Shown piece after piece: positions 4,639-22,021 of a stretch of 22,021 nucleotides of DNA (position 1 is its first letter; each line of letters begins with the position of its first letter). Below the pieces are notes generated by a model. The model was not told where the DNA came from, ran no database searches, and saw nothing but the letters and a program-made list of their open reading frames with translations. The DNA comes from a candidate division WOR-3 bacterium. GTDB lineage: Bacteria; Hydrothermota; Hydrothermia; LBFQ01; DSFT01. The stretch covers positions 1 to 22,021 of the forward strand of contig CBFGJN010000030.1 of NCBI GenBank assembly GCA_965649115.1. The letters are read 5' to 3'. The position numbers were made by a program, and so were the translations under genes.

Positions 4639-5205
4639 TTAAATCACCTTCCCCGAAAATTTAAGACTTAAACTAATAATTTTATTTTCTTTTGGAATAA
4701 CATTTAAATTACTATTTTCACTATAAGTTGTTGTAATTGATGTAATGTAGTCAAAACCTATACCAAAACCAATATAAAATTGTTTTGATATTGGAAAAAG
4801 CATATTCCCACCTATTCCAAAACCTAAATTACTTCCATTTGAGCTTCCATTATCTCCATTAAGTGTTAAACTAACAATTTGCGGAGAAAATAATGCTTGA
4901 AATATAAAGTTTTGAGAAGAATAAAGACCTATTAAGAATTTGATTTGTGTTATATTAAAATTTGTTGTATTTTCAAATGTAAAGCCATAGTAATCCCACT
5001 TTGTATTTAATGAACCAGAATTTAACTTAACCTCAAATCCTAAAAGTAAAGGACTTTCCCTAAAACCATACGTTCCAGAAAAACCAAAGCTTATAGGTGT
5101 TCCATTTGTTGTTGGTTTCGTTGAAAACACTGAACCTTTATAAGAAAAATCAATTTTTGATATACTATAAGATGAAATTCCAAAATCAAAACCCAAGAGA
5201 AACAT
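4639..5205 (-). CDS. Hypothetical protein, probable small outer-membrane beta-barrel
   Basis: 188 aa rich in G/F/S/Y with alternating amphipathic strands (LGFGIGGNMLFPISKQFYIGFGIGFDY). The fold is an inference. Confidence 0.55.
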   Translation of the reverse strand: MFLLGFDFGISSYSISKIDFSYKGSVFSTKPTTNGTPISFGFSGTYGFRESPLLLGFEVKLNSGSLNTKWDYYGFTFENTTNFNITQIKFLIGLYSSQNFIFQALFSPQIVSLTLNGDNGSSNGSNLGFGIGGNMLFPISKQFYIGFGIGFDYITSITTTYSENSNLNVIPKENKIISLSLKFSGKVI

Positions 5206-5212
5206 ATTGAAA

Positions 5213-5218
5213 ATTTTA
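5213..5218 (-). promoter_or_regulatory. -10-like TAAAAT, 7 nt upstream of the ATG at 5205
   Basis: Minus strand reads GCTTTAAAATTTTCAAT-ATG; the same motif precedes eight other starts. Confidence 0.6.
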
Positions 5219-5240
5219 AAGCTTAAATAGATATTTTTGG

Positions 5241-5407
5241 GCTTTGTCTAGTAATTCGGAAATATAGATTATTTCTTATTTTTTTCCCACCCACCCTATG
5301 AATAAGGCTTCGCCCCCCATTAGATCCCCCATAAAATCAATAGTTTTATTGAAATTTTCGTAAGTCATTGATAATCAAGCATTTAGCAATAATTACTGGA
5401 CAAAGCA
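5241..5407 (-). mobile_element. MITE-like element copy 1 (167 bp, internal deletion)
   Basis: TIRs GCTTTGTCTAGTAATT (5241-5256) and AATTACTGGACAAAGC (5391-5406), 15/16 complementary. Flanked by the direct repeat TATTTTTGG (5232-5240, 5408-5416). Confidence 0.85.
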
Positions 5408-5455
5408 TATTTTTGGAATTATTAGACAACACAAAACAGAGTAATAATTATCCCT

Positions 5456-5461
5456 TAAAAT
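5456..5461 (+). promoter_or_regulatory. -10-like TAAAAT, 9 nt upstream of the secG ATG
   Basis: CCTTAAAATTTTCAAACT-ATG. Confidence 0.6.
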
Positions 5462-5470
5462 TTTCAAACT

Positions 5471-5785
5471 ATGCTTTATGGGTTTTTGCTTTTTATTTTT
5501 ATTTTGCTTGTAATTTTTATGATATTGATTATTCTTATTCAAGAACCTAAAACAGCGGGGCTTGGAAGTTTTCTTGGAGGAACTGAAACAGTATTCGGAG
5601 CAAAAGGAACAGTTACCTTTTTCACAAAATTAACTGCTGGAATTGGTGCTATTTTTATGATTTTATCATTTATATTGGCTATGATAAACAGGCCTTCTAA
5701 TTATGGTTCAGCAATTGAGGAAGCTATAAAGAAAGGGAACATTATGAAACAATTACCTGTTCAACCACAACAACCTAAGAAATAA
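5471..5785 (+). CDS. secG: Preprotein translocase subunit SecG
   Basis: Two TM helices with ILIQEPKTAGLGSFLGG...VFGAKG...FFTKLTA signature. Confidence 0.93.
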   Translation: MLYGFLLFIFILLVIFMILIILIQEPKTAGLGSFLGGTETVFGAKGTVTFFTKLTAGIGAIFMILSFILAMINRPSNYGSAIEEAIKKGNIMKQLPVQPQQPKK

Positions 5786-5787
5786 AA

Positions 5788-7302
5788 TTGAAAAGTGCTT
5801 TAATTTCTGTTTGGACAAAAGAAGGTATAGAAAATTACGCAAAAGAATTAATAGATTTAGGTTATGAAATTATATCTACTAAGGGAACATGTGAATATTT
5901 AAAAAATTTCAATATAAATGCTAAATCAATTGACGAAATTACCAATTTTGAGCCTCTATTTGATGGAAGAGTTAAAACATTACATCCTATTATATTTGGA
6001 GGAATACTATATAAGAGAAACAACTTAAAACATCAACTTCAAGCAAAAGAAAAAAATATCCCAAATATAGAAATTGTAATTGTTGATTTATATCCATTCT
6101 CAATTGCTTCAAAAGATGTCATAGATGAAGAAGAATTGTTTGAATTCATAGATATTGGAGGAATATCACTTATTAGAGCAAGTGCTAAAAACTATAAAGA
6201 TGTTATAATAATTGTTGATTTAGATGATTTAGATTGGGTTATTGAGAAAATTAAGAAAAATTCCCTTACAATAGAAGACAGAAAAAAACTCGCATTGAAA
6301 GGTTTTTATAAAAGTGCCGATTATGATAGTTTTATATACAATGAACTTTTAAGAAGATGGCAGTTTAACATGTATGATTTAGATTTAATTTTTTCTTATA
6401 GGATTGGTTATCATTTGAGATACGGTGAAAACCCTCATCAAAAAGCAAGTTTATTATTTAACAATTACATAAAAGGATTTGCTCAAGCATTAGATTACAT
6501 TTGGGGAAAGGAACTTTCTTATAATAATTTACTTGATAGTTTTAGTGCATATAGTGTTGTAATGGAATTCAACGAAAAGGCTTGTGCTATTGTGAAACAT
6601 AATAATCCTTGTGGTGTTGCTATTGGCAGTAATGAAGTTGAAATTTATAAAAAAGCTTATGAAAGTGATCGTTTATCTGCTTATGGTGGAATTATAGCTT
6701 TTAATTTTGAAGTTAATGATGATTTAGCAAAATTATTAAATGAAAATTTCTATGAAGTTATTATAGCAAATGGTTATACACAAAAAGCATTGGATATTTT
6801 AAAAGAAAAGAAAAACAGAAGAATTCTAAAAATTAATAATTACAAAAAGCCAAATTTCTATATAAGAGATTTAGGAGGAGATTTACTAATATGTGAAGAA
6901 GATTATATTTTGTACAATGAACTTAATGTTGTAAGTGGAGATAATTTAACTGAAGACGAAAAAAAGCAAATTGAATTTGGTATTAAAGTAATAAAGCATA
7001 TTAAATCAAACGCTATTTTGTTATTAAAAAACTTTTCAACCGTAGGAATTGGAGCAGGACAGATGAGTAGAATTGATGCCTTAAAAGTAGCTATAATGAA
7101 AGCAGGTGAAAAAGCAAAAGGCAGTATTTTGATAAGTGATGCGTTCTTTCCATTCCCAGATAGTATAGAGCTTGCTTATGAAAATGGAATTTATTTAATT
7201 GTTGAACCTGGTGGCTCAATAAGGGATAATGAAGTTATAAATAAAGCAAAAGAATATAACATAAAGTTAGTTTTTACAGGAATTAGACATTTTAGACACT
7301 GA
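5788..7302 (+). CDS. purH: Bifunctional AICAR transformylase/IMP cyclohydrolase
   Basis: ALISV, GRVKTLHP, IDIGG, LRYGENPHQ, KHNNPCG, GAGQMSR, SDAFFPF, PGGSIRD, RHFRH. TTG start. Confidence 0.98.
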   Translation: MKSALISVWTKEGIENYAKELIDLGYEIISTKGTCEYLKNFNINAKSIDEITNFEPLFDGRVKTLHPIIFGGILYKRNNLKHQLQAKEKNIPNIEIVIVDLYPFSIASKDVIDEEELFEFIDIGGISLIRASAKNYKDVIIIVDLDDLDWVIEKIKKNSLTIEDRKKLALKGFYKSADYDSFIYNELLRRWQFNMYDLDLIFSYRIGYHLRYGENPHQKASLLFNNYIKGFAQALDYIWGKELSYNNLLDSFSAYSVVMEFNEKACAIVKHNNPCGVAIGSNEVEIYKKAYESDRLSAYGGIIAFNFEVNDDLAKLLNENFYEVIIANGYTQKALDILKEKKNRRILKINNYKKPNFYIRDLGGDLLICEEDYILYNELNVVSGDNLTEDEKKQIEFGIKVIKHIKSNAILLLKNFSTVGIGAGQMSRIDALKVAIMKAGEKAKGSILISDAFFPFPDSIELAYENGIYLIVEPGGSIRDNEVINKAKEYNIKLVFTGIRHFRH

Positions 7303-7307
7303 AAACT

Positions 7308-8852
7308 ATGATAATTCAAATTTTAGCGATTACGCCTTCGGAAGCTTTCAACAGGGCAAGCACACTTCTAAATGAAAACAAATTAGATTCTGTTAGTTAT
7401 TATTTAAGTATTGCTTATAAGGAATTTCCGAATGAGGTTGAAAATTTAATTTACTTGAAGTATTTAGAAGATCAAAAAACAGGTTTCAACTTAGCTTTGG
7501 AATTTGTAAAGTTAAATAAAAAATCTTGGAAAATTTCATCAATTGCTCTTCTTGGTGTTATTGAAGAAAAAAAATATAAAGAAATAGAAAAATTTTTGGA
7601 AATTTTTCCTGAAACTACAACGATTGGTAAAGTAATAAGTTTTTATAGTTTAGTCCAAAATAAAAAGTACTACGAAGCTATTAATGTGGGTGATAATTTA
7701 CTAAGCTCTTTTAGATATGCAATAACAATTCTTACAAATTATCCACAACTTCTAGATACAAGCCAACTATTTTATCTTCTTTTAAGAAAACTTTCCATTG
7801 ATTTTTTGGATTTTGCTTGTCAAAATTTTTATATGGAAAAATGTTTGAAATATATTTCAATAATTGAAAGCAAAGAAAAAGCTAAGGAAATTTATAATTA
7901 TGTTATTTTATATGGATTTTTTGGTTTAATTTCAAATGCTAAAAATTTTGATGAAGCTTATAATCAGCTACTAAAATTCGTAAAGTTTATAAAGGATAAC
8001 AATTGTAATGACTATGAAAAATTATTAACCATCTTTACTTCAATTCAATATACTTTTGAAAATGAGAGTTATTATGAATACGAAAAATTTTTATCTGCTG
8101 TTGATACGCTTGAAAATTATTGCCCTAATAAGTTTAACATTAAAATAAAATTATTAAGAGCTTATGGTTTGAGGGGATTGGACAAGAATAAAAAAGCTCT
8201 TGAAATTCTATTATCTTTAAAAGACAGCTTAAATGAACCCCAAAAACGATTTCTTATTGCTTCAGCTATTGATTACCTTGACTTTGAACTCGCTAAAAAA
8301 TTAACAAATGAATTTAACATAAATGATTCCTCAATTTTAAGAATTATTGACCCTTCAAAGAATTGTGAATTGCTTTATAACCAAAGGAAATTAAAAGAAA
8401 TTTTAAAAGTTTGCGATGAAGATACACCTGAAAGGGCTTATGTCTATTTCTTATTATCAAAAAAAGATTCAGCAAATCAAATTATAAATAATTTAATCAA
8501 AAATCTTGAATTTTCAAATAAAAATTACACTTACTATTGGAATAAAGGTTGGTTTAAATTACTAATTGGGGATATTGATAGTAGCTATTATTTAACATTA
8601 AAAGCACTTGAAATGAAACCAAACAATTCTTTCTTAATTATGAACCTTGGAAGCATTCATTTAGCAAAACTTAAAGTAGATTCTGCAATTTATTATTATA
8701 AAAAGGCATATAAAGTTAATAGTGAATATGGAAACTATAAAGAAAGTTCATTTTTCCAAGTTCTAAAAAATGATATTGAACTTATTAGTAAAATTTACAA
8801 CTTAAAAGTAAATTCAAAAGAAATTTTGGAAAAAATTAAGAAAAAGGCTTAA
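7308..8852 (+). CDS. Tetratricopeptide-repeat-containing hypothetical protein
   Basis: Helical composition with C-terminal TPR-like repeats (YWNKGWFKLLIGDIDSSYYLTLKALEMKPNN; MNLGSIHLAKLKVDSAIYYYKKA). Confidence 0.7.
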   Translation: MIIQILAITPSEAFNRASTLLNENKLDSVSYYLSIAYKEFPNEVENLIYLKYLEDQKTGFNLALEFVKLNKKSWKISSIALLGVIEEKKYKEIEKFLEIFPETTTIGKVISFYSLVQNKKYYEAINVGDNLLSSFRYAITILTNYPQLLDTSQLFYLLLRKLSIDFLDFACQNFYMEKCLKYISIIESKEKAKEIYNYVILYGFFGLISNAKNFDEAYNQLLKFVKFIKDNNCNDYEKLLTIFTSIQYTFENESYYEYEKFLSAVDTLENYCPNKFNIKIKLLRAYGLRGLDKNKKALEILLSLKDSLNEPQKRFLIASAIDYLDFELAKKLTNEFNINDSSILRIIDPSKNCELLYNQRKLKEILKVCDEDTPERAYVYFLLSKKDSANQIINNLIKNLEFSNKNYTYYWNKGWFKLLIGDIDSSYYLTLKALEMKPNNSFLIMNLGSIHLAKLKVDSAIYYYKKAYKVNSEYGNYKESSFFQVLKNDIELISKIYNLKVNSKEILEKIKKKA

Positions 8853-8878
8853 TTATAGGGTGGGAAAAATACACCTCC
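8844..8878 (+). repeat. Degenerate remnant of the MITE-like element
   Basis: AAGGCTTAATTATAGGGTGGGAAAAATA resembles AAGGCTTGATTTTAGGGTGTGTGGG (21846-21870) and the equivalent part of copy 3. Confidence 0.55.
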
Positions 8879-8899
8879 ATAAATGGTTAACTTATGCTT

Positions 8900-8905
8900 T
8901 AAAAT
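8900..8905 (+). promoter_or_regulatory. -10-like TAAAAT, 9 nt upstream of the dnaK ATG
   Basis: TGCTTTAAAATTTTCAGGCT-ATG. Confidence 0.6.
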
Positions 8906-8914
8906 TTTCAGGCT

Positions 8915-10780
8915 ATGGCAGAGAAAATTTTGGGTATTGACCTTGGAACAACGAACTCAGTTGTTTCTATAATGCAAGGTGATGAAACCATTGTTATTCA
9001 TAACTTAGAAGGTGAAAGATTAACACCATCTGTTGTTGCTTTTAAAGGAAATGGTGAAGTTATTGTAGGTTCTCCTGCTAAAAGACAGGCTATACTTAAT
9101 CCCGAAAATACAATTTACTCAATAAAAAGATTTATGGGGAGAAGATATGATGAGGCATTAGATGATATAAGAAGGGTTCCCTATAAGGTTGTTAGAGGAA
9201 GGAATGACAGAGTTGAAGTTTTTATTCCTGCTGAAAATAAAAATTACACACCAGAGCAAATATCAGCAGAGATTTTAAGATATTTGAAAAAGAGTGCTGA
9301 AACTTATCTTGGAGAGCCTGTTAGGAAAGCTGTTATAACAGTTCCTGCTTACTTTAATGATGCTCAAAGACAAGCAACAAAAGATGCCGGAACAATAGCA
9401 GGTCTTGAAGTTGTTAGAGTTCTTCCTGAACCAACAGCTTCTGCATTAGCTTATGGTCTAAATAAAACTGATAAAAAATTAAAAGTAGCAGTTTATGACT
9501 TAGGTGGTGGGACATTTGATATATCTATCCTTGAATTAAGTGGAGGAGTATTTGAAGTAATAGCTACTCATGGAGATACTCACTTAGGTGGAGATGATAT
9601 TGACAATAGAATTATTGAATGGCTTATTGAAGAATTTAGAAAAGAAACGGGCATAGATTTATCAGCTGATAGACAAGCTTTACAAAGGTTAAAAGAGGCA
9701 GCAGAAAGAGCCAAAAAAGAATTATCCTTCCAAAATGAAACAGTAATTAGTCTTCCATTTATAACTGTTGATAGTTCAGGTCCAAAACATCTTGAAAGAA
9801 CATTAACAAGAGCAAGACTTGAAGCAATGGCTATGGATTTAATAGATAGAAGTATTAAACTAATTAAGGAAGCTCTTGAAGAAGCCAAATTGAGACCATC
9901 AGATATTGATGAAATAATTCTTGTGGGAGGACAAACAAGAATGCCGTTAGTTCAAAGGAAAGTTCAGGAATTCTTCGGTAAAGAACCTCACAAGGGAATA
10001 AATCCCGATGAAGTAGTAGCAATTGGTGCAGCAATTCAAGCAGCGATTATATCTGGTGAGTATAGAGCAAAAGATATTGTTTTATTAGATGTAACACCAT
10101 TATCATTGGGTGTTGAGGTTCTTGGAGGTTTATTTGACGTAGTAATACCTAAGAATACAACTATACCAACAAGGAAAACGAAAATATATACAACAGCTGA
10201 GGATAATCAAACAAGTGTTTGGATTAAAGTTTATCAAGGAGAAAGAAAGATAGCAAGAGAAAATAGATTACTTGGAGAATTTGAGCTTTCAGGTATTCCA
10301 CCTGCACCAAGAGGAGTGCCTCAAATAGAAGTTACATTTGATATTGATGTAAATGGTATATTAACTGTTAGTGCTGTTGAAAAAGCAACTGGTAAAAAAG
10401 CTGATATTAAAATTCATGCAAGAACTGGATTAACAGAAGAAGAAATACAAAGAATGATAAAGGAAGCACAAGAGAAGGAAGAAGAAGATAGAAGGAGAGC
10501 AGAACTCATTGAACTTAAAAATCAAGTAGATGCCTATATTTATTCAGTTGAAAAATCATTAAAAGAATTTTCTTCACAAATAAGTGATGACGAAAAGAGA
10601 AGTGTAGAAGAAAAGATAAATAAAGCAAAAGAAAGTCTAAAAACTGACAATAAAGAAGAAATTCAAAAAGCCTATGAAGAACTTCAAAATGTTTGGAATA
10701 GTATAACTACAAGAATTTACCAAAGCTATAAGAGTGAAAGACCTGACGATAAAAAAGATGATTTTAGGGTAGAAAACTAA
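8915..10780 (+). CDS. dnaK: Chaperone DnaK (Hsp70)
   Basis: [70 protein letters not shown]. Confidence 0.99.
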
Positions 10781-11272
10781 ATGTTATTTTTTCTTTTTAA
10801 TCAATTAGAAAAAGAAATTCAAAAAAAGTATTTGTCTATAAACTACTTGAAGGCAAGTTTCATTCAGATTATTAAATATCCTTCAAGAAGTGATTCTGTT
10901 TTATTTAGTGGCTACTTAGTTTATAAATCACCAAGCGAATTAACTTTTAATATAAATGAAACCAAAAGTAAAATTATATTAAGAGATACGATTATAATGA
11001 CAGTTCAAAACAATGATACATCAATCCAAATTTTACCAAAAAATTATATGTTCAATCCATATTACTTCTTAACCGAAGGTATAAAAGCATATAAAAGTGA
11101 ATTAAAAAAATTCAATGATAAAATTGAAATTAATCTATTATCTGATACTTTATTTTACAAAGATATTAAATTTGTTTTAAACTCAAAGGATTATAGTATT
11201 TTAAGCGTCAAAGCAACTGACATGTACGGTGTTATATATGAATTAAAGCTGAAAGATATTGAACAAAAATGA
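10781..11272 (+). CDS. LolA-like outer-membrane lipoprotein carrier
   Basis: YLSINYLKASFIQ...FSGYLVYKSP...NP pattern resembles the LolA N-terminal strands (ASFxQ, G-x-L-x-x-K-x-P). Divergent sequence. Confidence 0.6.
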   Translation: MLFFLFNQLEKEIQKKYLSINYLKASFIQIIKYPSRSDSVLFSGYLVYKSPSELTFNINETKSKIILRDTIIMTVQNNDTSIQILPKNYMFNPYYFLTEGIKAYKSELKKFNDKIEINLLSDTLFYKDIKFVLNSKDYSILSVKATDMYGVIYELKLKDIEQK

Positions 11273-11679
11273 AAGCTATAAATTATGCTTTGAGGTTATT
11301 GAAATTTCGTTCTCGTTCTGAAAATGAATTGAGAAAAAGAATGAAACAAAAAGGATTTGAAGATATTGAAATTGATAGTGTAATTGAAAAGCTTAAAAAA
11401 TATGGTTATATAAATGAAATTGAAGATGCCATAAATTATGTTAAAATTAAATGTGAAAAGGGATGGTCAAAAAAGAAAATTTATTTTGGACTTTTAAGAA
11501 GAGGTTATAATAAAGAAATTATAAAACAAGCATTAATTAATTACCAAAAGGATTTAGTAATTCAAAAACTAAAAAATGAAATTTCAAGAAAGAATTTAAA
11601 TAAAGAGAAATTAATAAAACTTCTTAAAAGTAGAGGTTTTGAATGGGATATCATAAAAGAAGTTTTGAGAAATGATTGA
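11269..11679 (+). CDS. recX: Regulatory protein RecX
   Basis: ALRLLKFRSRSENELRKRM, LKKYGYIN, LLRRG, LKSRGF three-helix repeats. Confidence 0.9.
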   Translation: MKAINYALRLLKFRSRSENELRKRMKQKGFEDIEIDSVIEKLKKYGYINEIEDAINYVKIKCEKGWSKKKIYFGLLRRGYNKEIIKQALINYQKDLVIQKLKNEISRKNLNKEKLIKLLKSRGFEWDIIKEVLRND

Positions 11680-12340
11680 ATTAATAAATGTAAGGAAAGT
11701 TTATAAGGATCCAAATGAAATTGTTGTTTTTGAAAATTTAAATTTAAAAATATCTGAAAGTAAAATAATAGCCATAACTGGACCTTCTGGAAGTGGCAAA
11801 ACAACACTTTTGAATTTAATAGGAATGATTGATTTTCCCGATGAAGGAGAAGTTTTAATAAATTCAAAAAATATCAAAAATTTAAGTGAAAACGAAATAT
11901 CAAAATTAAGAAATGAATTTATTGGATTTGTATTTCAAAGCTCTCATTTAATAAATGAGCTAACAGTTTTGGAAAATGTTTTAATTCCAAGTTTAATAAA
12001 AAACAAATTTTTAAATAATGATAGCCTAAGAAGAGCAATTGAAATTCTTGATTATTTTCAAATATCAAATAAGAAAGATAATTTACCATATGAAATATCA
12101 GGTGGTGAAAAAAAGAGAGTTGAGATAGCAAGAGCAATTATGAATAACCCTAAAATTATCATAGCAGATGAACCTACTGCAAATTTAGACCAAAAGCTTA
12201 AATTTTCAATTATGGAAATTCTTTATAAAGTTAGAAATGATTTTGGAACTACTATTATATTTTCAACGCATGATTATGAAATACTTAAATATGCTGATAA
12301 AGTATATAAAATTGAAAATATGAATTTAGTAGAAATATGA
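11672..12340 (+). CDS. ABC transporter ATP-binding protein, LolD/MacB-like
   Basis: Walker A GPSGSGKTT, LRNEFIGFVFQ, signature ISGGEKKR, ADEPTANLD, H-loop STHD. Confidence 0.9.
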   Translation: MIELINVRKVYKDPNEIVVFENLNLKISESKIIAITGPSGSGKTTLLNLIGMIDFPDEGEVLINSKNIKNLSENEISKLRNEFIGFVFQSSHLINELTVLENVLIPSLIKNKFLNNDSLRRAIEILDYFQISNKKDNLPYEISGGEKKRVEIARAIMNNPKIIIADEPTANLDQKLKFSIMEILYKVRNDFGTTIIFSTHDYEILKYADKVYKIENMNLVEI

Positions 12341-13416: not shown

Positions 13417-13434
13417 TTTTAACCCTCTCTGCTG

Positions 13435-13614
13435 AGCTTTGTCCAGTAATTATTGTTAAGCGATTGATAATCAATAATTTATAAAATTTTTAAGGAAATT
13501 GTTGATTTATTGGGGGGATTATTAGGGGGGCTCTGCCCCCCAAAGCAAAAAATGGGTATTTTAAAGCCAAAAGCTTTTGAAAAATAAATAATTCCAGAAT
13601 TTTTGGACACAGCA
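13435..13614 (+). mobile_element. MITE-like element copy 2 (180 bp, lacks the GGGTGGGTGGG block)
   Basis: Ends AGCTTTGTCCAGTAATT and AATTTTTGGACACAGCA. Perfect 9-bp flanking direct repeat TCTCTGCTG (13426-13434, 13615-13623). Confidence 0.9.
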
Positions 13615-13636
13615 TCTCTGCTGATTTTATATTCTT

Positions 13637-13642
13637 TAAAAT
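13637..13642 (+). promoter_or_regulatory. -10-like TAAAAT, 8 nt upstream of an in-frame TTG at 13651
   Basis: TCTTTAAAATTTTCAAAT-TTG. Confidence 0.55.
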
Positions 13643-13650
13643 TTTCAAAT

Positions 13651-15573
13651 TTGACATTATTATTATTTGCTTTTGATATTATTAAACCATATGATAACAT
13701 CTATAAAATAGACCTTTCAGGTGACAATCAAATTGTTTTCACAAATGAAAGTGTTAAACCACTAAGAGTTCAAATTCTTGAGAATAATGAACCTCTAAAA
13801 AATTATGAAATTAACATTTTCCTTATAACACCAAATAATGTTGAAAAATATAAAGTTAAAACAGACAGTCTTGGTTATGCGATATTTATTCCACCAAAAC
13901 CAAAATTTGAAGGTTTATATAGAGTTATATTTTATAGAGAAGAACATTTTTCTTATTTTACTTTTAATGCAATAGATAGACTTTATATTCTATTTTCAAT
14001 ACTTGAAATGATTGGTGGATTTATTATTTTCCTATATGGAATGGAAAAATTAAATAGAGGAATAAATGCTTTTGCAGGCGCTACAATTAAAGGTTTTCTA
14101 AAAAAATTTTCAGAAAATAGAATTTTCTCATTCTTAATAGGTATTATTTCAACAATTGCTATACAATCATCAACAGCTATTAATGTTATGCTTGTATCAT
14201 TTGTAGATTCAGGATTATTATCTTTGAAAAGTGCTTTAAGTATTGCATTAGGAGCGGGAATAGGCTCAACATTTACAACACAATTAATATCATTTGGAAT
14301 ATTTGAAATTTCACCACTTATTATAACAATTGGCTATATATTAAAAAGAATGGAAGGAAGAATTAGAGCTTATGGAAACGCTATATTTGGAATAGGTTTA
14401 TTATTTTTTTCAATAAAAATGATGTCAAGTAGTGCTTACTCACTAAATATATTTCCTCAATTTAAAAGCTTCTTTGAAAGTGTAAATAGTAATCCTTTAT
14501 TTGGTATCTTAGTATCAATAATTTTTACTTCATTAGTTCATTCAAGTGCTGCAGTTGTAGGATTTGCAATATCACTTGGTTTTCAAAATATTATTGATTT
14601 AAAAGGTGGAATTTACATCATACTTGGAGCAAACATAGGAACAAGTATAACAGCGATTTTAGCATCTTTAAAAACAGGGGCAAGTGGTAAGCAAATTGCA
14701 TTTGCAAATTTCATATATAAATTCATAACATTTTTAATTATTTTTATTTTTATAAATGATTTTATAGAAATTGTGGAAAAAACTGATAGCTCACTTACAA
14801 GGCAAATAGCTAATGCTCATACTTTATTTAATATAATTGGAGCAATTATTTTTCTACCATTTGTAAATGTTGCTCAATTTATTTTTAAGAAATTATTTAA
14901 GGAAAAAATTGAGACAAGAATTTTACCCGACCCATCTATTTTTGATAATAGCTCAATTGCTATTGTTGTTGCTCATAGAAAAATTATAGAAATGTCAAAT
15001 ATCATTGAAAATATGCTTGATAAAATTCCAGAAATTTTGATTACAAAAAATACTTCTTTAATAAATAAAGTTGAATTAATGGATGAGGAGGTTGATAGAA
15101 TTAGAGATGAAATCGTCTTATATTTAATAAAACTTCAAAAAATTGAAATGACCGAAGAAGAAAGCAAAAAAGTTAAAATAATTTCAAGCATTATTGATGA
15201 ATTTGAAGCGATAGGTGATGTTATCACAAAAAACATTACAAAAAATGTTTATAAGCTTTATAATGAAGGAATTAATTTTTCAAAGGAAGGACTTGAAGAT
15301 TTACTTGAATTTCATAAGGAAATAATGATTAGTTTTCAAATTATGAATATCGCTCTACTTGATTTTGATAAAGTGAAGGCAAAGGAAGGTTTTGAAAGAA
15401 GATTTTATGTAAATAATTTACTTGATAAGTTTCATCAAAAACATTTTGAAAGATTAAAAGCACTAATTCAGGAAACATTTTTAACCAGTTCTATACATGT
15501 TGAACTTTTGAATAACTTTGAAAGAATAAACTATCATATTAGTGAAATCTGTAAAGAGATTATGAGTGAATAA
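13651..15573 (+). CDS. Na/Pi cotransporter family protein (NptA/YjbB-like) with C-terminal PhoU domain and N-terminal Ig-like extension
   Basis: QSSTA and HSSAA repeats, GAGIGST/GANIGTS, IANAHTLFN, helical PhoU-like C-terminus. I moved the start from the track's 13603 (inside element copy 2) to the in-frame TTG at 13651 that follows the recurring -10 motif. Confidence 0.88.
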   Translation: MTLLLFAFDIIKPYDNIYKIDLSGDNQIVFTNESVKPLRVQILENNEPLKNYEINIFLITPNNVEKYKVKTDSLGYAIFIPPKPKFEGLYRVIFYREEHFSYFTFNAIDRLYILFSILEMIGGFIIFLYGMEKLNRGINAFAGATIKGFLKKFSENRIFSFLIGIISTIAIQSSTAINVMLVSFVDSGLLSLKSALSIALGAGIGSTFTTQLISFGIFEISPLIITIGYILKRMEGRIRAYGNAIFGIGLLFFSIKMMSSSAYSLNIFPQFKSFFESVNSNPLFGILVSIIFTSLVHSSAAVVGFAISLGFQNIIDLKGGIYIILGANIGTSITAILASLKTGASGKQIAFANFIYKFITFLIIFIFINDFIEIVEKTDSSLTRQIANAHTLFNIIGAIIFLPFVNVAQFIFKKLFKEKIETRILPDPSIFDNSSIAIVVAHRKIIEMSNIIENMLDKIPEILITKNTSLINKVELMDEEVDRIRDEIVLYLIKLQKIEMTEEESKKVKIISSIIDEFEAIGDVITKNITKNVYKLYNEGINFSKEGLEDLLEFHKEIMISFQIMNIALLDFDKVKAKEGFERRFYVNNLLDKFHQKHFERLKALIQETFLTSSIHVELLNNFERINYHISEICKEIMSE

Positions 15574-15585
15574 GTCATTATTATC

Positions 15586-15924
15586 TGCCCCACTATAATC
15601 CCCCATTAAATAATAGGTTATTGATAACCAATAACTTATTGCTTTGTCTAGTAAATAATGTTAGGTTATTGGTTATCAATAACTTATAAAGATTTTATTG
15701 GAATTATTTATTAAAGGGGGGTTTTAATGGGGGGCTTTGCCCCCCCATAGCCGAAATATGGGTACTTTAAAGGCGAAGCCTTGAATATAGGGTGGGTGGG
15801 AAAATAAAATACAGAAAAATAAATAATTTTAGAATTGCTGGACACAGCAATAACTTATAAATTGGGTTTTTTAAAGCAGTAGGCCTATATTTAGGGTGGG
15901 TAAGAAAAGAGAGAAAAATAAAAA
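15586..15924. repeat. Older degenerate element remnants flanking copy 3
   Basis: The left flank has C-tracts and the 25-bp palindrome (15614-15638). The right flank has TGGGTTTTTTAAAG...TAGGGTGGGTAAGAAAA...AAAAATAAA, matching the element interior. Confidence 0.65.
15640..15849 (+). mobile_element. MITE-like element copy 3 (210 bp, most complete)
   Basis: Ends TGCTTTGTCTAGTAAAT and AATTGCTGGACACAGCA. 9-bp direct repeat ATAACTTAT (15631-15639, 15850-15858). Contains all internal modules. Confidence 0.9.
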
Positions 15925-16329
15925 CTATTTTCTCATTTCATCAATAATATCTTTTAATGTCATTTTTGAAAGAAAATTTTCAATTTTTTCATTCATCTTT
16001 TTCCAAAAACCTTTCATTAAGCACATTGAAATAAAACTACAACTATTATCGCTTTCAATACATTTAACAATTCCAAATTTTCCTTCAAGTAATTCAATAA
16101 TTTCAATAATTTTTATATCTTCTGGCTTTTTCTTTAAATAATAACCTCCTTTTGGACCTCTTTTTCCTTCAACAATTCCAGCGTTTTTAAATTCAGCCAT
16201 TATTCTTTCAAGAAATGATTCGGGTATCAATTCAATATAAGATAATTCCTTAGTAGTTAAAGAACCATTCAAATGTAATCTTAAAAGTGCTCTTATTCCA
16301 TATTCAACTTTATTAGTTAATTTTAGCAT
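15925..16329 (-). CDS. Rrf2 family transcriptional regulator (three-Cys, Fe-S-binding type)
   Basis: LTNKVEYGIRAL, IPESFLERI, GKRGPKGGYYL, C-x6-C-x5-C cluster. Confidence 0.93.
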   Translation of the reverse strand: MLKLTNKVEYGIRALLRLHLNGSLTTKELSYIELIPESFLERIMAEFKNAGIVEGKRGPKGGYYLKKKPEDIKIIEIIELLEGKFGIVKCIESDNSCSFISMCLMKGFWKKMNEKIENFLSKMTLKDIIDEMRK

Positions 16330-16338
16330 TTATTTAAA

Positions 16339-16344
16339 ATTTTA
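16339..16344 (-). promoter_or_regulatory. -10-like TAAAAT, 9 nt upstream of the Rrf2 ATG
   Basis: Minus strand TGCTTTAAAATTTTAAATAA-ATG. Confidence 0.6.
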
Positions 16345-16367
16345 AAGCATAAGGTATTTTATTTTTC

Positions 16368-16573
16368 TATTGTGTCTAGTAATTTTGAAAATATATTCAT
16401 TTCTATATTTTTTTCGCACCCAACCTAATAATAAGCCTTCTGATTATAAATACCTCATCTTTTGCCTTTGATGGCTTTACCACCATTAAATCCCCTATAA
16501 AATCAATAGTTTCGTTAAAAATGTTGTAAGTTATTGATTATCAAAGGCTTAAAATTAATTATTGTACAAAGCA
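16368..16573 (-). mobile_element. MITE-like element copy 4 (206 bp, full length but diverged)
   Basis: Ends TATTGTGTCTAGTAATT and AATTATTGTACAAAGCA, colinear with the reverse complement of copy 3. Palindrome at 16527-16551. No clear TSD. Confidence 0.8.
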
Positions 16574-16685
16574 TTCTTTGATGGCGTATCCAATATTAAG
16601 CTTTCAACTTTAAAATTTCCATATTTCCTTAACAAAGCACCTTGTTAGAAACAGAAAAATAAGCCCCCCTACTGAAAAAATGCTT

Positions 16686-16691
16686 TAAAAT
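16686..16691 (+). promoter_or_regulatory. -10-like TAAAAT, 9 nt upstream of the rpoZ ATG
   Basis: TGCTTTAAAATTTTACTCCT-ATG. Confidence 0.6.
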
Positions 16692-16700
16692 TTTACTCCT

Positions 16701-16901
16701 ATGGATAAGAACTTTAAATTTCTTGCAAAAAAATTTGAGTGGAAAAAGATAGATGATAAGTACGAGGCGGTTATTGTTGCTGCCAAATATGCAAGGTTCT
16801 TATTTGAAAAGTCAAAAGAACAAAACTTTAAATTACCTTCAAAACCGATATTTATAGCGATGGATGCTTATCTAAACAAAAAGATAGAATATAAAAAGTG
16901 A
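16701..16901 (+). CDS. rpoZ: RNA polymerase omega subunit
   Basis: KYEAVIVAAKYAR...KPIFIAM matches the omega pattern; it lies directly upstream of coaBC as in the conserved rpoZ-coaBC order. Confidence 0.8.
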   Translation: MDKNFKFLAKKFEWKKIDDKYEAVIVAAKYARFLFEKSKEQNFKLPSKPIFIAMDAYLNKKIEYKK

Positions 16902-18019
16902 AAATTATTCTTGGTATTACGGGAAGTGTCGCTTGTTATAAAGGAATTCTGATTTCAAGAGAAATTTTCAAAAGAGGTCTAAATCAAAAAGTTATTTTAA
17001 CGAATTCTGCATTAAAATTTATAAGACCCTTAATTTTCAAAGCAATATCAAATGCAGAAGTTTATACACAAAAGGATTTTTTTAATTCAAATCTTCATAT
17101 TGAAATATCAAGATGGGGTGATTTACTTTTAGTAGCACCTGCCAGTGCCAACTTTATATCAAAACTCGCTAATGGTATAGCTGATAATTTATTACTTTCA
17201 GTTGCTATTTCATTTAACAAAAGGATTATATTAGCACCTGCTATGCATGATGAAATGTGGAAAAATAAATTTTTGAAAGAAAATGTAGAAAAGTTAATAA
17301 AAAGTGGAATTGAAATTATTGGACCTGTTTATGGAGAATTATCTGGTGGAGATTTTGGAGAAGGAAGAATGCTTGAAGTAAATGAAATAATAGATTATAT
17401 ATTTAAAAGAACAAAAAAAGTTTTGCTTGTATATGGAAGGACAGAAGAACCAATAGACGATGTTAGAGTAATTACAAATCGTTCAAGTGGAAAAATAGGT
17501 TATTTTATCCATAAGGCACTTGAAAGTAAAGGAATTTATCATGATATTATTGTTTGTGGTTCAATTGAGAATGTGCCAGAAAAGAAATTTATAAGAGTTT
17601 ATAGAACACAAGAGCTTTTAAATGTTTTAAAAGAAATTATTAAAAATTATGATGTTCTAATAATACCCGCTGCAATCTCTGATTTCGTAAGTGATAGTAT
17701 AAAGGGGAAAATTCATAGAAAAAATGGAAATTTAAATTTAAATTTAAAACCAAATATTGATGTTTTAAGAGAAATTTCAAGTTTAAAGGAAAATAGAATG
17801 TACATTGGATTTGCTCTTGAAGAAGAAAACGAAATTGAAGAGAATGCAAAAAATAAAATTATTGAGAAAAATTTAGACTTTATCGTAGCAAATACCTTAG
17901 ATAGTATTTCATCTGAAAATATGACAGGTTTTATAATGGATAAGAATTTCAAAAAAGTTTTTGAATTTAAAAATTTAGATAAATTTGAAGTTGCCAAAAA
18001 AATTGTAAGTTTAATATGA
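16898..18019 (+). CDS. coaBC: Bifunctional phosphopantothenoylcysteine decarboxylase/synthase
   Basis: GITGSVACYK, HIEI, APASAN, GIADNLL, PAM, TEEPIDDVRVITNRSSGK, AAISDF, GFALE. GTG start. Confidence 0.95.
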   Translation: MKIILGITGSVACYKGILISREIFKRGLNQKVILTNSALKFIRPLIFKAISNAEVYTQKDFFNSNLHIEISRWGDLLLVAPASANFISKLANGIADNLLLSVAISFNKRIILAPAMHDEMWKNKFLKENVEKLIKSGIEIIGPVYGELSGGDFGEGRMLEVNEIIDYIFKRTKKVLLVYGRTEEPIDDVRVITNRSSGKIGYFIHKALESKGIYHDIIVCGSIENVPEKKFIRVYRTQELLNVLKEIIKNYDVLIIPAAISDFVSDSIKGKIHRKNGNLNLNLKPNIDVLREISSLKENRMYIGFALEEENEIEENAKNKIIEKNLDFIVANTLDSISSENMTGFIMDKNFKKVFEFKNLDKFEVAKKIVSLI

Positions 18020-18651
18020 AACTTCCAAAAGGTTCATTAAAATGGAAAATAACATATATATTGGCTTATCCAATTGCTAAATTTATTATTGGAGTTAAAA
18101 TTTACGGAAGAGAAAATATCCCTGAAAATGGTCCTTTAATTTTAGCCCCAAATCACAGAAGCTATATTGACCCGCCTGTTGTTGGTTTTGCAAGTCCAAG
18201 AGAAACATATTTCTTAGCAAAAGAAGAATTATTTAAGTTTAAGCCATTTGCTATGTTAATATCTTTTTATAATGCAATTCCTTTAAAGAGAAGCGTTGAA
18301 TCAAAAACTGCTTTAATTTATGCTATTGAAAAATTAAAAGAAAACAAAGTCATAACAATTTTTCCAGAAGGCACAAGAAATAAAACAAAACAAAAATTAT
18401 TACCATTTAAGCTTGGCGTGGCATTTTTATCATTAAATACAAATGCAAAAATTGTTCCAATATATATAAAAAACAATGATGGTAGAGCATTTTTAAAACC
18501 TTTCTTATGGATTTTAAGAATTAAAAGACTTGAAGTTCATATAGGCAAACCCATAGAGCCTAATGAATTTACAAATGATAGAAAAGGGCAAGTTGAACTA
18601 ACAAAAAAACTATATGAAGAAATGTTAAAACTTATAGAAAATGCTAAATAA
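18016..18651 (+). CDS. plsC: 1-acyl-sn-glycerol-3-phosphate acyltransferase
   Basis: NHRSYID (HX4D), FLAKEELF, IFPEGTR, IVPI motifs. Confidence 0.93.
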   Translation: MKLPKGSLKWKITYILAYPIAKFIIGVKIYGRENIPENGPLILAPNHRSYIDPPVVGFASPRETYFLAKEELFKFKPFAMLISFYNAIPLKRSVESKTALIYAIEKLKENKVITIFPEGTRNKTKQKLLPFKLGVAFLSLNTNAKIVPIYIKNNDGRAFLKPFLWILRIKRLEVHIGKPIEPNEFTNDRKGQVELTKKLYEEMLKLIENAK

Positions 18652-19504
18652 ATTAAATTTTAAAATTGGACATTATAAAAATTGTACAGTTATACTATGC
18701 CCTAATAGGACAATTGGAAGTTATTATTGTCCTGGCTATGCCCCTTCTAGTAGAGAATTAGAACTACTTAAACCTGATAAAACTGTAAATGTTGTTAATG
18801 CTATATTATTAACAGGTTGTTCAGCATTTGGACTTATAAGAGCAGAAGGGGTTGTTAAATTTCTTAAAGAAAATAATATAGGATATAAAACACCCTTTTC
18901 TATTGTTCCTATTGTTCCATCTGCCGTTATATATGACCTTGGAGTTTTAGAGATTATTCCTGAAATTGATGATGGATATAAAGCTTGTTTAAATGCTAAT
19001 TTTGATGTAAAAATTGGAAAAATTGGTGCTGGTCTTGGTGCTACTGTTGGAAAGTGGGCAGGATTTGAATATAAAGATGATGGAGGATTGGGTTTTTATT
19101 GTTATGAATATAAAAATTTAATTGTATGTGCATTAAGTGTTGTAAATAGTGTTGGAGATATTATAGATAAAGATGGAAAAATTTTAAGAGGTGCTAAAAA
19201 AGATAATAACTTTTTAGCAGAAAATTTAAAATTTAGATTTTTAAGCATTAGTGAAAACATAAATACTACAATTGTTTGTATTCTCACAAATGCAAAAATT
19301 GATAAACTTGGTTGCTATAAGCTTTCAAAACGTTCAGTTATCGGAATATCAAGAGCAATTGAACCATCTTTTACTTCTTATGATGGAGATATTATTTTCA
19401 CATTAACAACTAATGAAGTTGAATGCTCTTTTGAAGAATTATGTGAAATCACGAATTTTGTTGTTTCTGAGAGTATTCGTTCAATAGCTCAAAAAATGTT
19501 TTAA
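18641..19504 (+). CDS. Peptidase family S58 / P1 (DmpA-like)
   Basis: APSSRELELL, AILLTGCSAFGL, VPIVPSAVIYDL, GAGLGATVGK, VVNSVGD, NTTI, YDGDIIF. Confidence 0.88.
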   Translation: MLNKLNFKIGHYKNCTVILCPNRTIGSYYCPGYAPSSRELELLKPDKTVNVVNAILLTGCSAFGLIRAEGVVKFLKENNIGYKTPFSIVPIVPSAVIYDLGVLEIIPEIDDGYKACLNANFDVKIGKIGAGLGATVGKWAGFEYKDDGGLGFYCYEYKNLIVCALSVVNSVGDIIDKDGKILRGAKKDNNFLAENLKFRFLSISENINTTIVCILTNAKIDKLGCYKLSKRSVIGISRAIEPSFTSYDGDIIFTLTTNEVECSFEELCEITNFVVSESIRSIAQKMF

Positions 19505-19811
19505 CTGCTCTTCTTACATGCGGTATTGTAATTGAACCACCTACAATTAAGGCAATATCAATAATTTCAAAAAACTCATCTTTTGTTATACCATTTTCCA
19601 AACACTTAATAATGTGATAGGTTATACAATCATCACATCTAAGAACAATTGAAGCAACAAGACCCATCATTTCTTTATATTTTTTAGGAATTTTACCATC
19701 ATTATAAACATCATGATCAAGAGCAAAAAATCTCTTTGTTGATAATGTCCCTTCTTTTAATATAATTTCATTCATCTTTTCTCTAAAAGCTTTAAAGTCA
19801 TTTACATTCAT
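19449..19811 (-). CDS. Carboxymuconolactone decarboxylase / AhpD family protein
   Basis: KYKEMMGLVASIVLRCDDCITYH (E-x9-CxxC-x3-H-type AhpD core), VGGSITIPH. Confidence 0.9.
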   Translation of the reverse strand: MNVNDFKAFREKMNEIILKEGTLSTKRFFALDHDVYNDGKIPKKYKEMMGLVASIVLRCDDCITYHIIKCLENGITKDEFFEIIDIALIVGGSITIPHVRRAVKTFFELLNEYSQKQQNS

Positions 19812-19818
19812 AGCGAAA

Positions 19819-19824
19819 ATTATA
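19819..19824 (-). promoter_or_regulatory. Consensus -10 TATAAT, 7 nt upstream of the CMD-gene ATG
   Basis: Minus strand ACTTTATAATTTTCGCT-ATG. Confidence 0.65.
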
Positions 19825-19839
19825 AAGTCTATAATTTGA

Positions 19840-20205
19840 TGGTGTGTCTAGTAATTCTGAAAGTATTTATTTTTCTTATTTTGGCCACCCATCTTATATT
19901 CAAGGTTTTGCCTTAAAAACTTCGCTCCCTTAAAAACCTCCGTTGGACAAAGCAAAAAATTTTAGTGTGTCTAATAATTTTAGAACCATTTATTTTTCTA
20001 TTTTTCCCGTCCACCCTGAAATTAAGCTTTATTCAGTAATTCTGGGAACATATATTTTTCTATATATAGTTTCAGAAAATTTTTCATAAGTTATTGATAA
20101 TCAATTACTTGACAACAATTATTGGACAAAGCAAGTTTTATTTAGTGTTTATAAAAATTCTGAAAGTATTTATTTTATTATATTTCTTCCATACACCCTA
20201 TTAAA
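19840..20205 (-). mobile_element. Tandem cluster of four same-orientation element derivatives: 19840-19954, 19963-~20024, 20025-20133, 20143-~20205
   Basis: Four starts resembling TGCTGTGTCTAGTAATTCTGAAA and two GGACAAAGCA ends (19954, 20133). AATTCTGAAAGTATTTATTTT is identical at 19853 and 20156. Palindrome at 20087-20111. Confidence 0.8.
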
Positions 20206-20246
20206 ACAACGTAAAGATTAGCTTGTCCTTTCTTTAATAAAATAAA

Positions 20247-21599
20247 TCAAGACAAACTCTGACTGATTTTTTCAAACATTTCCTTAAAAACCTTCGGATC
20301 AATTTTGGAATTTATTTTTTTAGCCTCTCCAATAAAAAAGCCTAATAGGCCTAATTTCCCTGATTTATATTCTACAAACTTTTGAGGATACTTTTCAATT
20401 AAATCCATTATTATTTTTTTAACTTCACTTTCATCTAATAATTCAAAATTTTTAAGAATTTCATCAACACTAAGTTTATCCTTCATTTCTAACAATTTCT
20501 GCCTTGCTATATGACTTGGAATTTTATTTTCCTTCATTAAAATTGTTAGTTTTGAAAGTTCTTTAACATCGGGGAAATTTTCAAAAGATTTTATGATATT
20601 TACAATTAAATTACTTCCAACAATTGGGTCTCCTCCATTTGAAAGAAATAGTTCAAAATAATTATTTAAATTTATATCTCGGACAATTACTTCTGCATAT
20701 TCCTCACTAACACCAATACTTAAATAATAATTAAATTTCTCAAAGGGTGTGCTAAACTTAAAGTCAAAATTTTTTAATGTGATAAAAGGCAAGTCTGGTT
20801 CTGGAAAATATCTATAATCTTCCTCACTTTCCTTCTTTCTAATTTCTCTTGTAGTCTTTGAATAATCATCCCACATTTTTGTTGTTCTTTTTATAGAAAT
20901 GCCTTTTTTTATCTGTTCTACTTGATAGTTTATTTCATATTCAAGAGCATTTTCAACTTCTCTTATAGAATTAACATTTTTTATCTCCACTCTTTCATTG
21001 TTATTAACGGACACATTTATATCAACACGCATTTGACCTTTTTCCATATTAGCATCAGATATATTTAGATATTGAACCAAAAGTCTTAAATTTTCAAGAA
21101 ATTTAACAACTTCTTTTGGATTTCTCATATCAGGATATGTAACAATTTCAATTAATGGAATTCCTGCTCTATTAAAATCTAACAAAATCTGATTATCTTC
21201 TATCTGAATGCTTCTTGCAGTATCTTCTTCAAGACTTATTCTCATAATTCTAACATGTTTTTCACCTTTAAGATCTAAATTCAAGTATCCATCATAACCA
21301 ATTGAACCTATTTTATATTGAGTTATTTGATAACCTTTTGGAAGATCAGGATAAAAATAATTTTTCCTATAAAATTGAAACTTTTGAGATAACCTACAAT
21401 TTAAAGCCTTTGATAACATTATAGCATATTCTAACGCTTTTTTATTTACAGAAGGAAGTGTTCCCGGATAACCGAGACATATTGGACATATATTTAAATT
21501 AGCTTCATCTTCATAATTGTAGTCATTTTTACAAGAGCAAAACATTTTACTTTCAGTTTTTAATTGAAGGTGAATTTCAAGACCTATCTTTATATCCAT
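20247..21599 (-). CDS. gatB: Asp-tRNA(Asn)/Glu-tRNA(Gln) amidotransferase subunit B
   Basis: IGLEIHLQL, KMFC, CLGYPGTLP, RKNYFYPDLPKGYQITQ, DFNRAGIPLIEIVT, EIKNVNS, DYRYFPEPDL. Confidence 0.98.
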   Translation of the reverse strand: MDIKIGLEIHLQLKTESKMFCSCKNDYNYEDEANLNICPICLGYPGTLPSVNKKALEYAIMLSKALNCRLSQKFQFYRKNYFYPDLPKGYQITQYKIGSIGYDGYLNLDLKGEKHVRIMRISLEEDTARSIQIEDNQILLDFNRAGIPLIEIVTYPDMRNPKEVVKFLENLRLLVQYLNISDANMEKGQMRVDINVSVNNNERVEIKNVNSIREVENALEYEINYQVEQIKKGISIKRTTKMWDDYSKTTREIRKKESEEDYRYFPEPDLPFITLKNFDFKFSTPFEKFNYYLSIGVSEEYAEVIVRDINLNNYFELFLSNGGDPIVGSNLIVNIIKSFENFPDVKELSKLTILMKENKIPSHIARQKLLEMKDKLSVDEILKNFELLDESEVKKIIMDLIEKYPQKFVEYKSGKLGLLGFFIGEAKKINSKIDPKVFKEMFEKISQSLS

Positions 21600-21609
21600 A
21601 TGTTTTTAA

Positions 21610-21615
21610 AGTTTA
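21610..21615 (-). promoter_or_regulatory. -10-like TAAACT, 10 nt upstream of the gatB ATG
   Basis: Minus strand CCTTTAAACTTTAAAAACAT-ATG, a variant of the recurring motif. Confidence 0.45.
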
Positions 21616-21669
21616 AAGGATAGAAGAATTTTACAAAACTTCGTTTTATAAATACCTATATTTAGACAC

Positions 21670-22021
21670 TGGGGACAAAGCTCCCGACAAAAAATAGGGT
21701 ATTTTAAAGGCGAAGCATTGAAGATAGGGTGGGTGGGAGAATATAAAAAACAAATAATTTCAGAATTATTAGACAAAGCACTTATCAATTTAATTTATAG
21801 GGGGGCGTTAGCACCCCTACCGAAAAATGGGGATTTTATAAGCCGAAGGCTTGATTTTAGGGTGTGTGGGTAAATAAGGAAAAAATAAATAATTTTAGAA
21901 TTACTAGACACAGCACTGATTAGATGCTTTGTCTAGTAATTATTGTTAAGTCTTTGATTATCAATAACTTATAAAAATTTTAAGAAAATTATTAATTTTG
22001 GTGGGGGTTTTAAGGGGGGCG
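21670..22021 (+). mobile_element. Tandem cluster of three element copies: right halves ~21670-21780 and ~21797-21915, and a new copy from 21925 that runs off the window
   Basis: Right ends AATTATTAGACAAAGCA (21780) and AATTACTAGACACAGCA (21915). Left end TGCTTTGTCTAGTAATT at 21925. Palindrome at 21947-21971. Confidence 0.85.

Follow-up and report, generated by a model that had tools for sequence, protein, structure and literature searches.

Miniature inverted-repeat transposable elements (MITEs) of IS903-type insertion sequences (ISs) are already known, and the nearest published case as an element is MITEAba12 of Acinetobacter with its parent ISAba12, the relatives of which include ISAba10. 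MITEAba12 measures 113 bp, was counted at 90 copies over 30 genomes and is credited, in the sections of the report available, with a preference for AT-rich targets only; the table given there assigns the same repeat to ISAba12-type ends as to ISAba10 (PMC6382973). For IS903, a palindromic target motif, WTTYA-N9-TRAAW, has been tabulated (PMC2577343, citing Hu & Derbyshire 1998/2001). The TnGBS integrative and conjugative elements (ICEs), ISLre2 and ISKra4, which possess Mutator-like transposases, target positions 15-17 bp ahead of the -35 box in sigma-A promoters (PMC3942029). The stretch of DNA considered here, called the window, is the 22,021-nt contig CBFGJN010000030.1 (C30) of a candidate division WOR-3 bacterium, taken in its entirety from a draft genome (G000; 1,848,020 bases in 99 contigs, 27.6% G+C, 94.5% complete). 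The sequencing runs containing most of the window carry hot-spring metagenome labels. Its intergenic gaps are largely occupied by a MITE family which is, very probably, moved in trans by an IS903-type IS, inserts in one orientation and in a fixed register before promoters, and builds stacks by serial insertion.

The repeats constitute a non-coding, non-autonomous MITE family of ~205 bp, the copies of which can be explained without any open reading frame (ORF). The consensus of 205 nt features asymmetric ends, namely TGCTTTGTCCAaTAAaTA at the left (L) and, read inward, TGCTgTGTCtAgTAATTC at the right (R). A first profile seeded with five copies from the window yielded 680 matches on 93 of the 99 contigs. 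The 216 full copies of the genome then served to build a second profile, which gave 781 matches covering 100,079 bases or 5.4% of the 1.85-Mb genome; 230 of these are full-length copies, 464 contain a right end and 338 a left end. The terminus pattern, allowing up to two mismatches, was found 914 times in the genome and 14 times in the reversed sequence serving as control. An earlier interpretation of the letters of the window (the sequence-only reading) had placed one family in all seven sizeable gaps and in both orientations, and repeat finding indeed connects all of these gaps on both strands: 15 profile matches lie in six of them, and the seventh (8853-8914) holds only a fragment of 21-27 nt. 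Altogether, 1,465 of the 2,140 bases of gap DNA in the contig (68%) belong to the family, with only two of its bases outside the gaps. Likewise, the coordinates and the module order claimed for the copy at 15640-15849 were recovered, i.e., terminal inverted repeat (TIR), palindrome, G-tracts, two hairpins, GGGTGGGTGGG, A-rich tract and TIR; in folding, this copy forms three local hairpins (z = -3.05). Consensus scans revealed an excess neither of sigma-70-like promoters (117 vs. 106.3 +/- 10.6 expected) nor of terminator-like sites (3 vs. 6.0 +/- 2.4 expected).

In line with the sequence-only reading, the family matched no named one in the searches made. A scan of the window against Rfam gave a single match with E <= 1, a plastid 3' untranslated region (E 0.87, 24.8 bits vs. 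a gathering score of 55.8), and comparison of the MITE with plasmids and phages in distant mode gave none. No description of the element was found in the literature on IS903 target choice, TnGBS, IS5-family MITEs and Hydrothermota, and in a 2025 genome survey of the WOR-3 phylum the terms transposase, MITE, insertion sequence and repeat do not occur at all.

The mobility of the family is documented by its target site duplications (TSDs). Perfect 9-bp TSDs flank 94 of the 216 full copies, or 109 if one mismatch is allowed, compared to 1.26 when left and right flanks are paired across different copies. Shifting the frame by 1-3 nt leaves 0-7 perfect pairs, and other lengths fail. The excess of 9-bp flanking repeats is thus genome-wide, and the three different repeats named in the sequence-only reading (TATTTTTGG, TCTCTGCTG, and ATAACTTAT) were found exactly. 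Its deduction of DDE transposition from TIRs and variable 9-bp TSDs gains from these counts and from the DDE residues of the parent transposase described below. In addition, for 63 of 218 full copies another copy exists that is at least 95% identical, which points to recent activity.

Empty orthologous sites were likewise encountered. In the congener G002, contig C4 is collinear with the window at a protein identity of 88-91%, and two gaps, 15574-15924 and 19812-20246, collapse there to ~0-1 nt. The convergent genes flanking the former are 1 nt apart in G002; in the latter, the whole 435-bp stack region is missing and the stop codon of gatB overlaps the promoter motif of the next gene (L060:14830-14870). 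The last residues of gatB in G000 (window 20247-20262) differ from those in G002 from the start of the MITE-derived DNA onward. A candidate interpretation, according to which the G000 gatB ends in a decayed left terminus, was dropped as the evidence was too weak. At the promoter faced by the copy at 16371-16573, G002 carries a copy as well, the TSD of which is perfect; this reflects either an old insertion or one promoter struck twice. At the secG promoter, G002 (L052:886-1152) carries a full copy and a fragment at 12 nt, and G000 (5417-5461) a 17-nt R remnant at 19 nt; the 9-mers differ between both species, and this promoter seems to have been struck independently in each. Behind purK and ahead of rpoZ and secG, no clean pair of filled and empty sites was found in congeners, as gene order differs or occupancy is not comparable. 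Within the genus, many copies of the MITE are present in G002 and few in G003, and none were found in G001 and G004; in 36 more distant genomes, only two weak partial matches occurred.

The same repeats might be regarded as regulatory or structural DNA of the host, e.g., repetitive extragenic palindromic (REP)-like sequences, terminators or upstream promoter modules, that multiplied through recombination or duplication. Without exception they are intergenic and associated with promoters, form head-to-tail arrays and bring GC-rich hairpins (with the folding score given above) into an AT-rich genome. Nevertheless, this explanation is largely refuted and has very little left to recommend it, since the repeats possess TIRs and copy-specific 9-bp TSDs, which were not shown to belong to a longer conserved unit, since orthologous sites are empty in G002, and since an IS exists with the same termini and TSD length. 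Moreover, stacked neighbors are not the closest relatives of each other, terminator-like sites are not in excess and no Rfam family matches.

This IS, of the IS5 family and the IS903 type and co-resident with the MITE, is supported as the element that moves the latter in trans. It was traced by termini which are not explained by MITE matches and of which identical versions were found repeatedly where contigs stop: a long element bounded by such termini appears with one end (end A) at 16 contig ends and with the other (end B) at 10. Six pairs of A and B ends share a perfect 9-mer outside the terminus, so that each pair represents both flanks of a single insertion that duplicated 9 bp. Two variant copies reach 216-236 nt into end B and enter an open frame. 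A 43-aa translation of this frame, compared to a public collection of 5.8 billion proteins, retrieved one protein, P0004 (300 aa, E = 1.5e-15, 89% identical), the N-terminus of which is encoded from ~68 nt inside end B and the last residues and stop codon of which lie in end A. P0004 reaches 245.5 bits on the IS5-family model NF033579 (cut-off 140; model positions 2-288 of 289), 88.9 bits for PF01609 and 73.5 bits for the N-terminal domain PF13737 (cut-off 28.1). We take the NF033579 model and the PF13737 domain to be marks of the IS903 group in particular. In an alignment of P0004 with ISAba10, ISVa1 and one relative from the class, the triad D115, D194, E256 is invariant, as is the Y-(2)-R-(3)-E-(6)-K signature (Y249, R252, E256, K263). 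With the transposases of ISVa1 and ISAba10, P0004 aligns from end to end at ~30% identity.

The termini agree with this assignment. The 18-nt inverted repeat of ISAba10 matches the left terminus at 14 of 18 positions, with a TG start here instead of GG. Of 25 positions compared between the left ends of the MITE and the IS, 23 are equal, whereas the right ends of both have TAATTC in common, which is absent from the left ends. A start codon ~68 nt from the left end, an ORF of 903 nt and ~82 nt after the stop lead to a length of ~1.05 kb, which is an estimate only. For a comparison with single-ORF IS903-type elements of ~1.0-1.06 kb and inverted repeats of the GGCTTTGTTG type, only the ends of the IS are assembled in G000. 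The family postulated as a high-copy MITE mobilized in trans has, beside its 781 pieces, an IS with matching termini and six pairs sharing 9-bp duplications as its counterpart.

Of the two candidate families proposed in the sequence-only reading, IS903 and IS256/Mutator-like elements, only the first was retained, given the IS5-family affiliation of P0004, its PF13737 domain and the likeness to the ISAba10 repeat. Elements of the IS256 family generate duplications of 8-9 bp, which would fit the TSD length. Besides, the known promoter-targeting transposases in the available sections of the TnGBS study are Mutator-like (PMC3942029). A mobilization of the MITE by such a transposase, with the IS5-type element unrelated, is nonetheless hardly conceivable: PF00872 (Mutator/IS256-type) matches nothing in G000 or G002, and the IS5-type element shares with the MITE the left-end positions just given, the 9-bp TSD and the register. 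The sole PF00872 match in G003 (G003:C103; L010, 1-2113) is a decayed IS256/Mutator-type remnant on a contig without MITE termini, and is unrelated.

Further searches delimit the occurrence of the parent. PF01610 (ISL3-type) gave no match in G000, G002 and G003, and Pfam returned nothing for a 28-aa N-terminal peptide, which is too short for this purpose. End B was found only in G000 among 64 genomes of the class, and its exact 21-mer had 0 matches in metagenome contigs, a set which may leave out near-identical records. TIR pairs 0.3-6 kb apart with TSDs comprised only tandem MITEs and one unit without transposase. This unit of 1,426 bp (G000:C11:31359-32784; L009:1860-3285) has MITE-type termini and a perfect 9-bp duplication, TATATCTTT, for which ~0.2 occurrences are expected by chance at this spacing (a rough estimate); it encloses two ORFs (65 and 242 aa) that have a promoter motif to themselves and no Pfam match, and might represent a composite of the family with cargo. 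Two diverged copies of the parent IS at G000:C93 (L011:1-236) and G000:C50 (L012) extend further than others. The former is probably decaying, as the conserved KRGRP stretch in the predicted N-terminus of the transposase is replaced. In a relative from the same class (G046:C168; L032:954-2030), an intact IS5-type element was found with a 309-aa transposase, different inverted repeats and a 9-bp duplication. No promoter motif visibly adjoins it, and a homing property may therefore be limited to the lineage studied.

As an element, the family resembles MITEAba12 in its lack of coding sequence, its IS903-type ends (GGCTTTGTTGCA...) and its 9-bp TSDs (PMC6382973), in its mobilization in trans by a single-ORF IS of ~1.02-1.05 kb and in the restriction of parent identity to the ends; the ~40% of copies keeping TSDs are a further likeness. 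In contrast to MITEAba12, as far as the available sections describe it, the family presented here is larger (~205 bp), contains internal hairpin modules, amounts to 781 pieces (5.4%) in one 1.85-Mb genome, has ends that are asymmetric, keeps to a fixed register and orientation towards promoters and forms stacks with 9-nt spacing.

Register and orientation refer to a motif, CTTTAAAAT, that precedes the start codon by 6-10 nt in 726 ORFs of at least 80 aa, which were used as the set of motif promoters. In its form CTTTAAAATTTT, it may be interpreted as a -10-like promoter element of near-leaderless mRNAs. A conserved -35 element is not visible in the reconstructed empty sites, and -10-only promoters together with near-leaderless mRNAs are suggested for this lineage. 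Among 458 R termini, the motif follows at 19 nt in 135 cases, at 18 nt in 45 and at 10-13 nt in 60; among 299 L termini, it occurs at 18-19 nt in three, without any peak. A second count of 454 R termini assigned 120 to the inside of stacks and 334 to outermost positions, the latter having the motif at 18-20 nt (188), only at 10-13 nt (58) or elsewhere within 40 nt (13). Seen from the genes, 209 of the 726 motif-type promoters (~29%) carry an R end in the same orientation, 150 of them at 18-19 nt and 47 at 10-13 nt. The parent IS follows the same rule: 12 of its 16 R ends have the motif (<=2 mismatches) at 18-19 nt, three abut another terminus at 9 nt and one does neither, the chance rate of the register being 0.024. 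Likewise, seven of eight IS-type R ends at metagenome loci with transposases 61-88% identical to P0004 lie in the same register.

In the reconstructed empty sites, the duplicated 9-mer is AT-rich and otherwise without consensus, and the motif lies 10 nt beyond it. The CA directly before the 9-mer, which was also observed at insertions not stacked on a recognizable older copy, could reflect a preference in target choice or be what is left of decayed R ends (ending ...GCA). With IS903, the sites have in common the 9-bp duplication, the AT-rich target and the recognition via bases outside the duplicated 9-mer. The palindrome WTTYA-N9-TRAAW was not seen next to the TSD in the reconstructed sites; as tabulated in the part of the source at hand, the motif of IS903 is a symmetric one directly adjoining the duplication, whereas the motif found here is one-sided and located 10 nt (or ~2 nt) beyond it. 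The fixed short distance upstream of promoters, the proximal right inverted repeat and the asymmetric ends are shared with TnGBS, ISLre2 and ISKra4 (PMC3942029). This likeness is one of behavior only and membership fails on the transposase family, since an IS4/IS5 DDE_Tnp_1 transposase is present here and a Mutator-like one there. Moreover, the point of reference is the -10-like motif of putatively near-leaderless genes rather than a -35 box, and massive MITE amplification is not described for these elements in the available sections (PMC3942029).

The copies further accumulate in stacks. At 114 same-strand junctions from R to L end, the gap measures 9 nt in 96 cases and 8 nt in eight. Stacked neighbors are not more similar than random pairs (identity 0.721 vs. 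0.727, p = 0.52; 35 junctions, 400 random pairs), so that tandem duplication or slippage was rejected as the origin of the stacks, and the stacked copies arose independently of each other. In 42 of 76 cases, the spacer is identical to the 9-mer that follows the proximal copy, and in 20 of 43 to the one preceding the distal copy. Intact right ends were found in 80 of 104 proximal copies and intact left ends in 47 of 104 distal ones; in 59 of these 104 stacked pairs, the proximal copy is closer to the consensus.

The mechanism accommodating these observations starts with a DDE (IS5-family) enzyme that joins the element to a target staggered by 9 bp, which produces the 9-bp duplications. IS and MITE both insert in one orientation with the right end nearest the gene, and the 9-bp target is found upstream of CTTTAAAATTTT, at a distance of 10 nt in the major register and of ~2 nt in the minor one. 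If it is the spacing to the motif that determines the target, every insertion would re-create the 9-mer beside the promoter, so that later insertions would strike the same spot. Repeated hits would then generate head-to-tail stacks with exact 9-nt spacing, in which older copies are shifted upstream and decay from their left ends. Such a self-renewing target is what we infer for the stacks, as the simplest model. The site would be picked by the transposase itself, either by reading the motif or via a promoter-bound protein. A register imposed by the transposase rather than by subsequent selection is indicated by its sharpness and by its occurrence among the 16 IS copies, which are considered recent due to their identical ends. 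The position would presumably be tolerated as the core promoter stays intact.

Alternatively, insertion could be random or AT-preferring, as for MITEAba12, with the promoter-proximal pattern left over by purifying selection in a gene-dense genome. The genome is compact with most other sites coding, and the published parts at hand ascribe only a loose palindromic target motif to classical IS903 (PMC2577343) and a preference for AT-rich DNA to MITEAba12 (PMC6382973). Yet selection explains neither the single-nucleotide registers of the R ends nor the strict orientation, with only three L ends at 18-19 nt, nor the exact 9-nt spacers, and intergenic positions a few nucleotides off should be equally harmless. 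As 12 of the 16 recent IS copies are in register and three are stacked, this alternative is improbable, if less so than the other two discussed above.

Several observations weigh against an oriented, promoter-directed insertion by the parent IS. Only about half of the full copies retain a TSD, and 75 of the 334 outermost R ends, which random insertion would also accommodate, have no motif within 40 nt. The copy at 15640-15849 lies between convergent genes, where no promoter is expected. The promoter status of the motif is deduced from its position 6-10 nt before start codons and is thus sequence-based only, the R ends fall into two discrete registers 8 nt apart, and the age gradient within stacks is weak (identity to consensus 0.871 proximal vs. 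0.860 distal, p = 0.026). As for the parent, the interior of the IS is missing from the G000 assembly, PF01609 finds nothing in G000, G002 and G003, and P0004 is linked to G000 only by 35-43 N-terminal and ~11 C-terminal residues in contig ends. Finally, sequence alone cannot fully separate targeting from selection. Despite these points, the movement of the MITE in trans by the IS903-type IS, with oriented insertion before promoters, remains by far the best explanation. A more far-reaching version, in which an IS903-type transposase independently evolved true promoter homing and is guided by the transcription machinery or by a specific recognition of the -10-like motif instead of the loose palindromic preference of IS903, is put forward tentatively and appears rather doubtful at present.

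The sequence-only reading had captured the family and its mode of spreading; it did not include the co-resident parent IS, the fixed and oriented placement before promoters and the 9-nt-spaced stacks. The individual pieces in the window are compiled in Table 1.

Table 1. Pieces of the MITE family in the window with their neighboring promoter motifs (positions as in the contig).
Feature	Position	Strand	Remarks
Internally deleted MITE, 167 bp, both termini	5241..5407	-	TSD TATTTTTGG at 5232-5240 and 5408-5416; R end at 5241, 19 nt from promoter motif 5213-5221 (-) of gene 4639-5205
R-end remnant, 17 nt	5417..5433	+	19 nt upstream of secG promoter motif 5453-5461
Internal fragment (hairpin 2 + GGGTGGG module)	8844..8870	+	Repeat family D8; below nhmmer threshold; overlaps stop of gene 7308-8852; upstream of dnaK promoter motif 8897-8905
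MITE copy, 180 bp, without GGGTGGGTGGG module	13435..13614	+	TSD TCTCTGCTG at 13426-13434 and 13615-13623; R end at 13614, 19 nt from promoter motif 13634-13642 of Na/Pi symporter gene
Older decayed MITE fragment, left part, interrupted by copy 15640-15849	15586..15639	.	
Full-length MITE, 210 bp, nested in older copy	15640..15849	+	TSD ATAACTTAT at 15631-15639 and 15850-15858
Older copy, right part	15860..15926	+	Model positions 116-183
Near-full MITE	16371..16573	-	R end ~20 nt from promoter motif 16339-16347 (-) of Rrf2 regulator gene
Four-piece stack	19840..20202	all -	Pieces 19840-19961, 19965-20028, 20065-20133, 20150-20202; faces promoter motif 19819-19827 (-), belonging to gene 19449-19811; 12 nt between motif and proximal R end
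5'-truncated copy, first of plus-strand series	21669..21780	+	Model positions 89-205; series upstream of gene beyond contig end
5'-truncated copy	21791..21915	+	Model positions 74-205; R end followed by 9-nt spacer CTGATTAGA
Left part of copy, cut by contig end	21925..22021	+	Model positions 1-96

The contig terminates inside a MITE copy, and 106 of the 198 contig ends of the genome are located within 300 nt of a match, which identifies the family as the cause of the breaks in this assembly. Contigs from public runs (4 runs from 4 studies) all break at the MITE gaps, with no clean joint across a copy among the matches listed, and no RNA run is among the listed runs holding the window. For the annotation of this hot-spring lineage, the MITE explains assembly breaks at most intergenic regions and also marks promoters.

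The combination of a 5.4% genome share, ~29% of promoters occupied, an oriented register sharp to one nucleotide and 9-nt-spaced stacks is not described in the literature found. If homing holds true, the MITE would be a standard module directly upstream of ~30% of the promoters of this lineage, where it may insulate or tune them. Likewise, a second, unrelated bacterial transposase lineage would then feature the property known from TnGBS, as a bacterial parallel to the promoter-tethered retrotransposons of yeast. If the transposase itself picks the site, a 300-aa enzyme, 25-nt ends and a 9-nt motif would represent a compact and tractable system, and thus a model for how a simple DDE transposase finds a 'safe' promoter-adjacent site. 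In addition, the MITE insertions offer a natural experiment on the upstream DNA needed by promoters of the putatively near-leaderless type.

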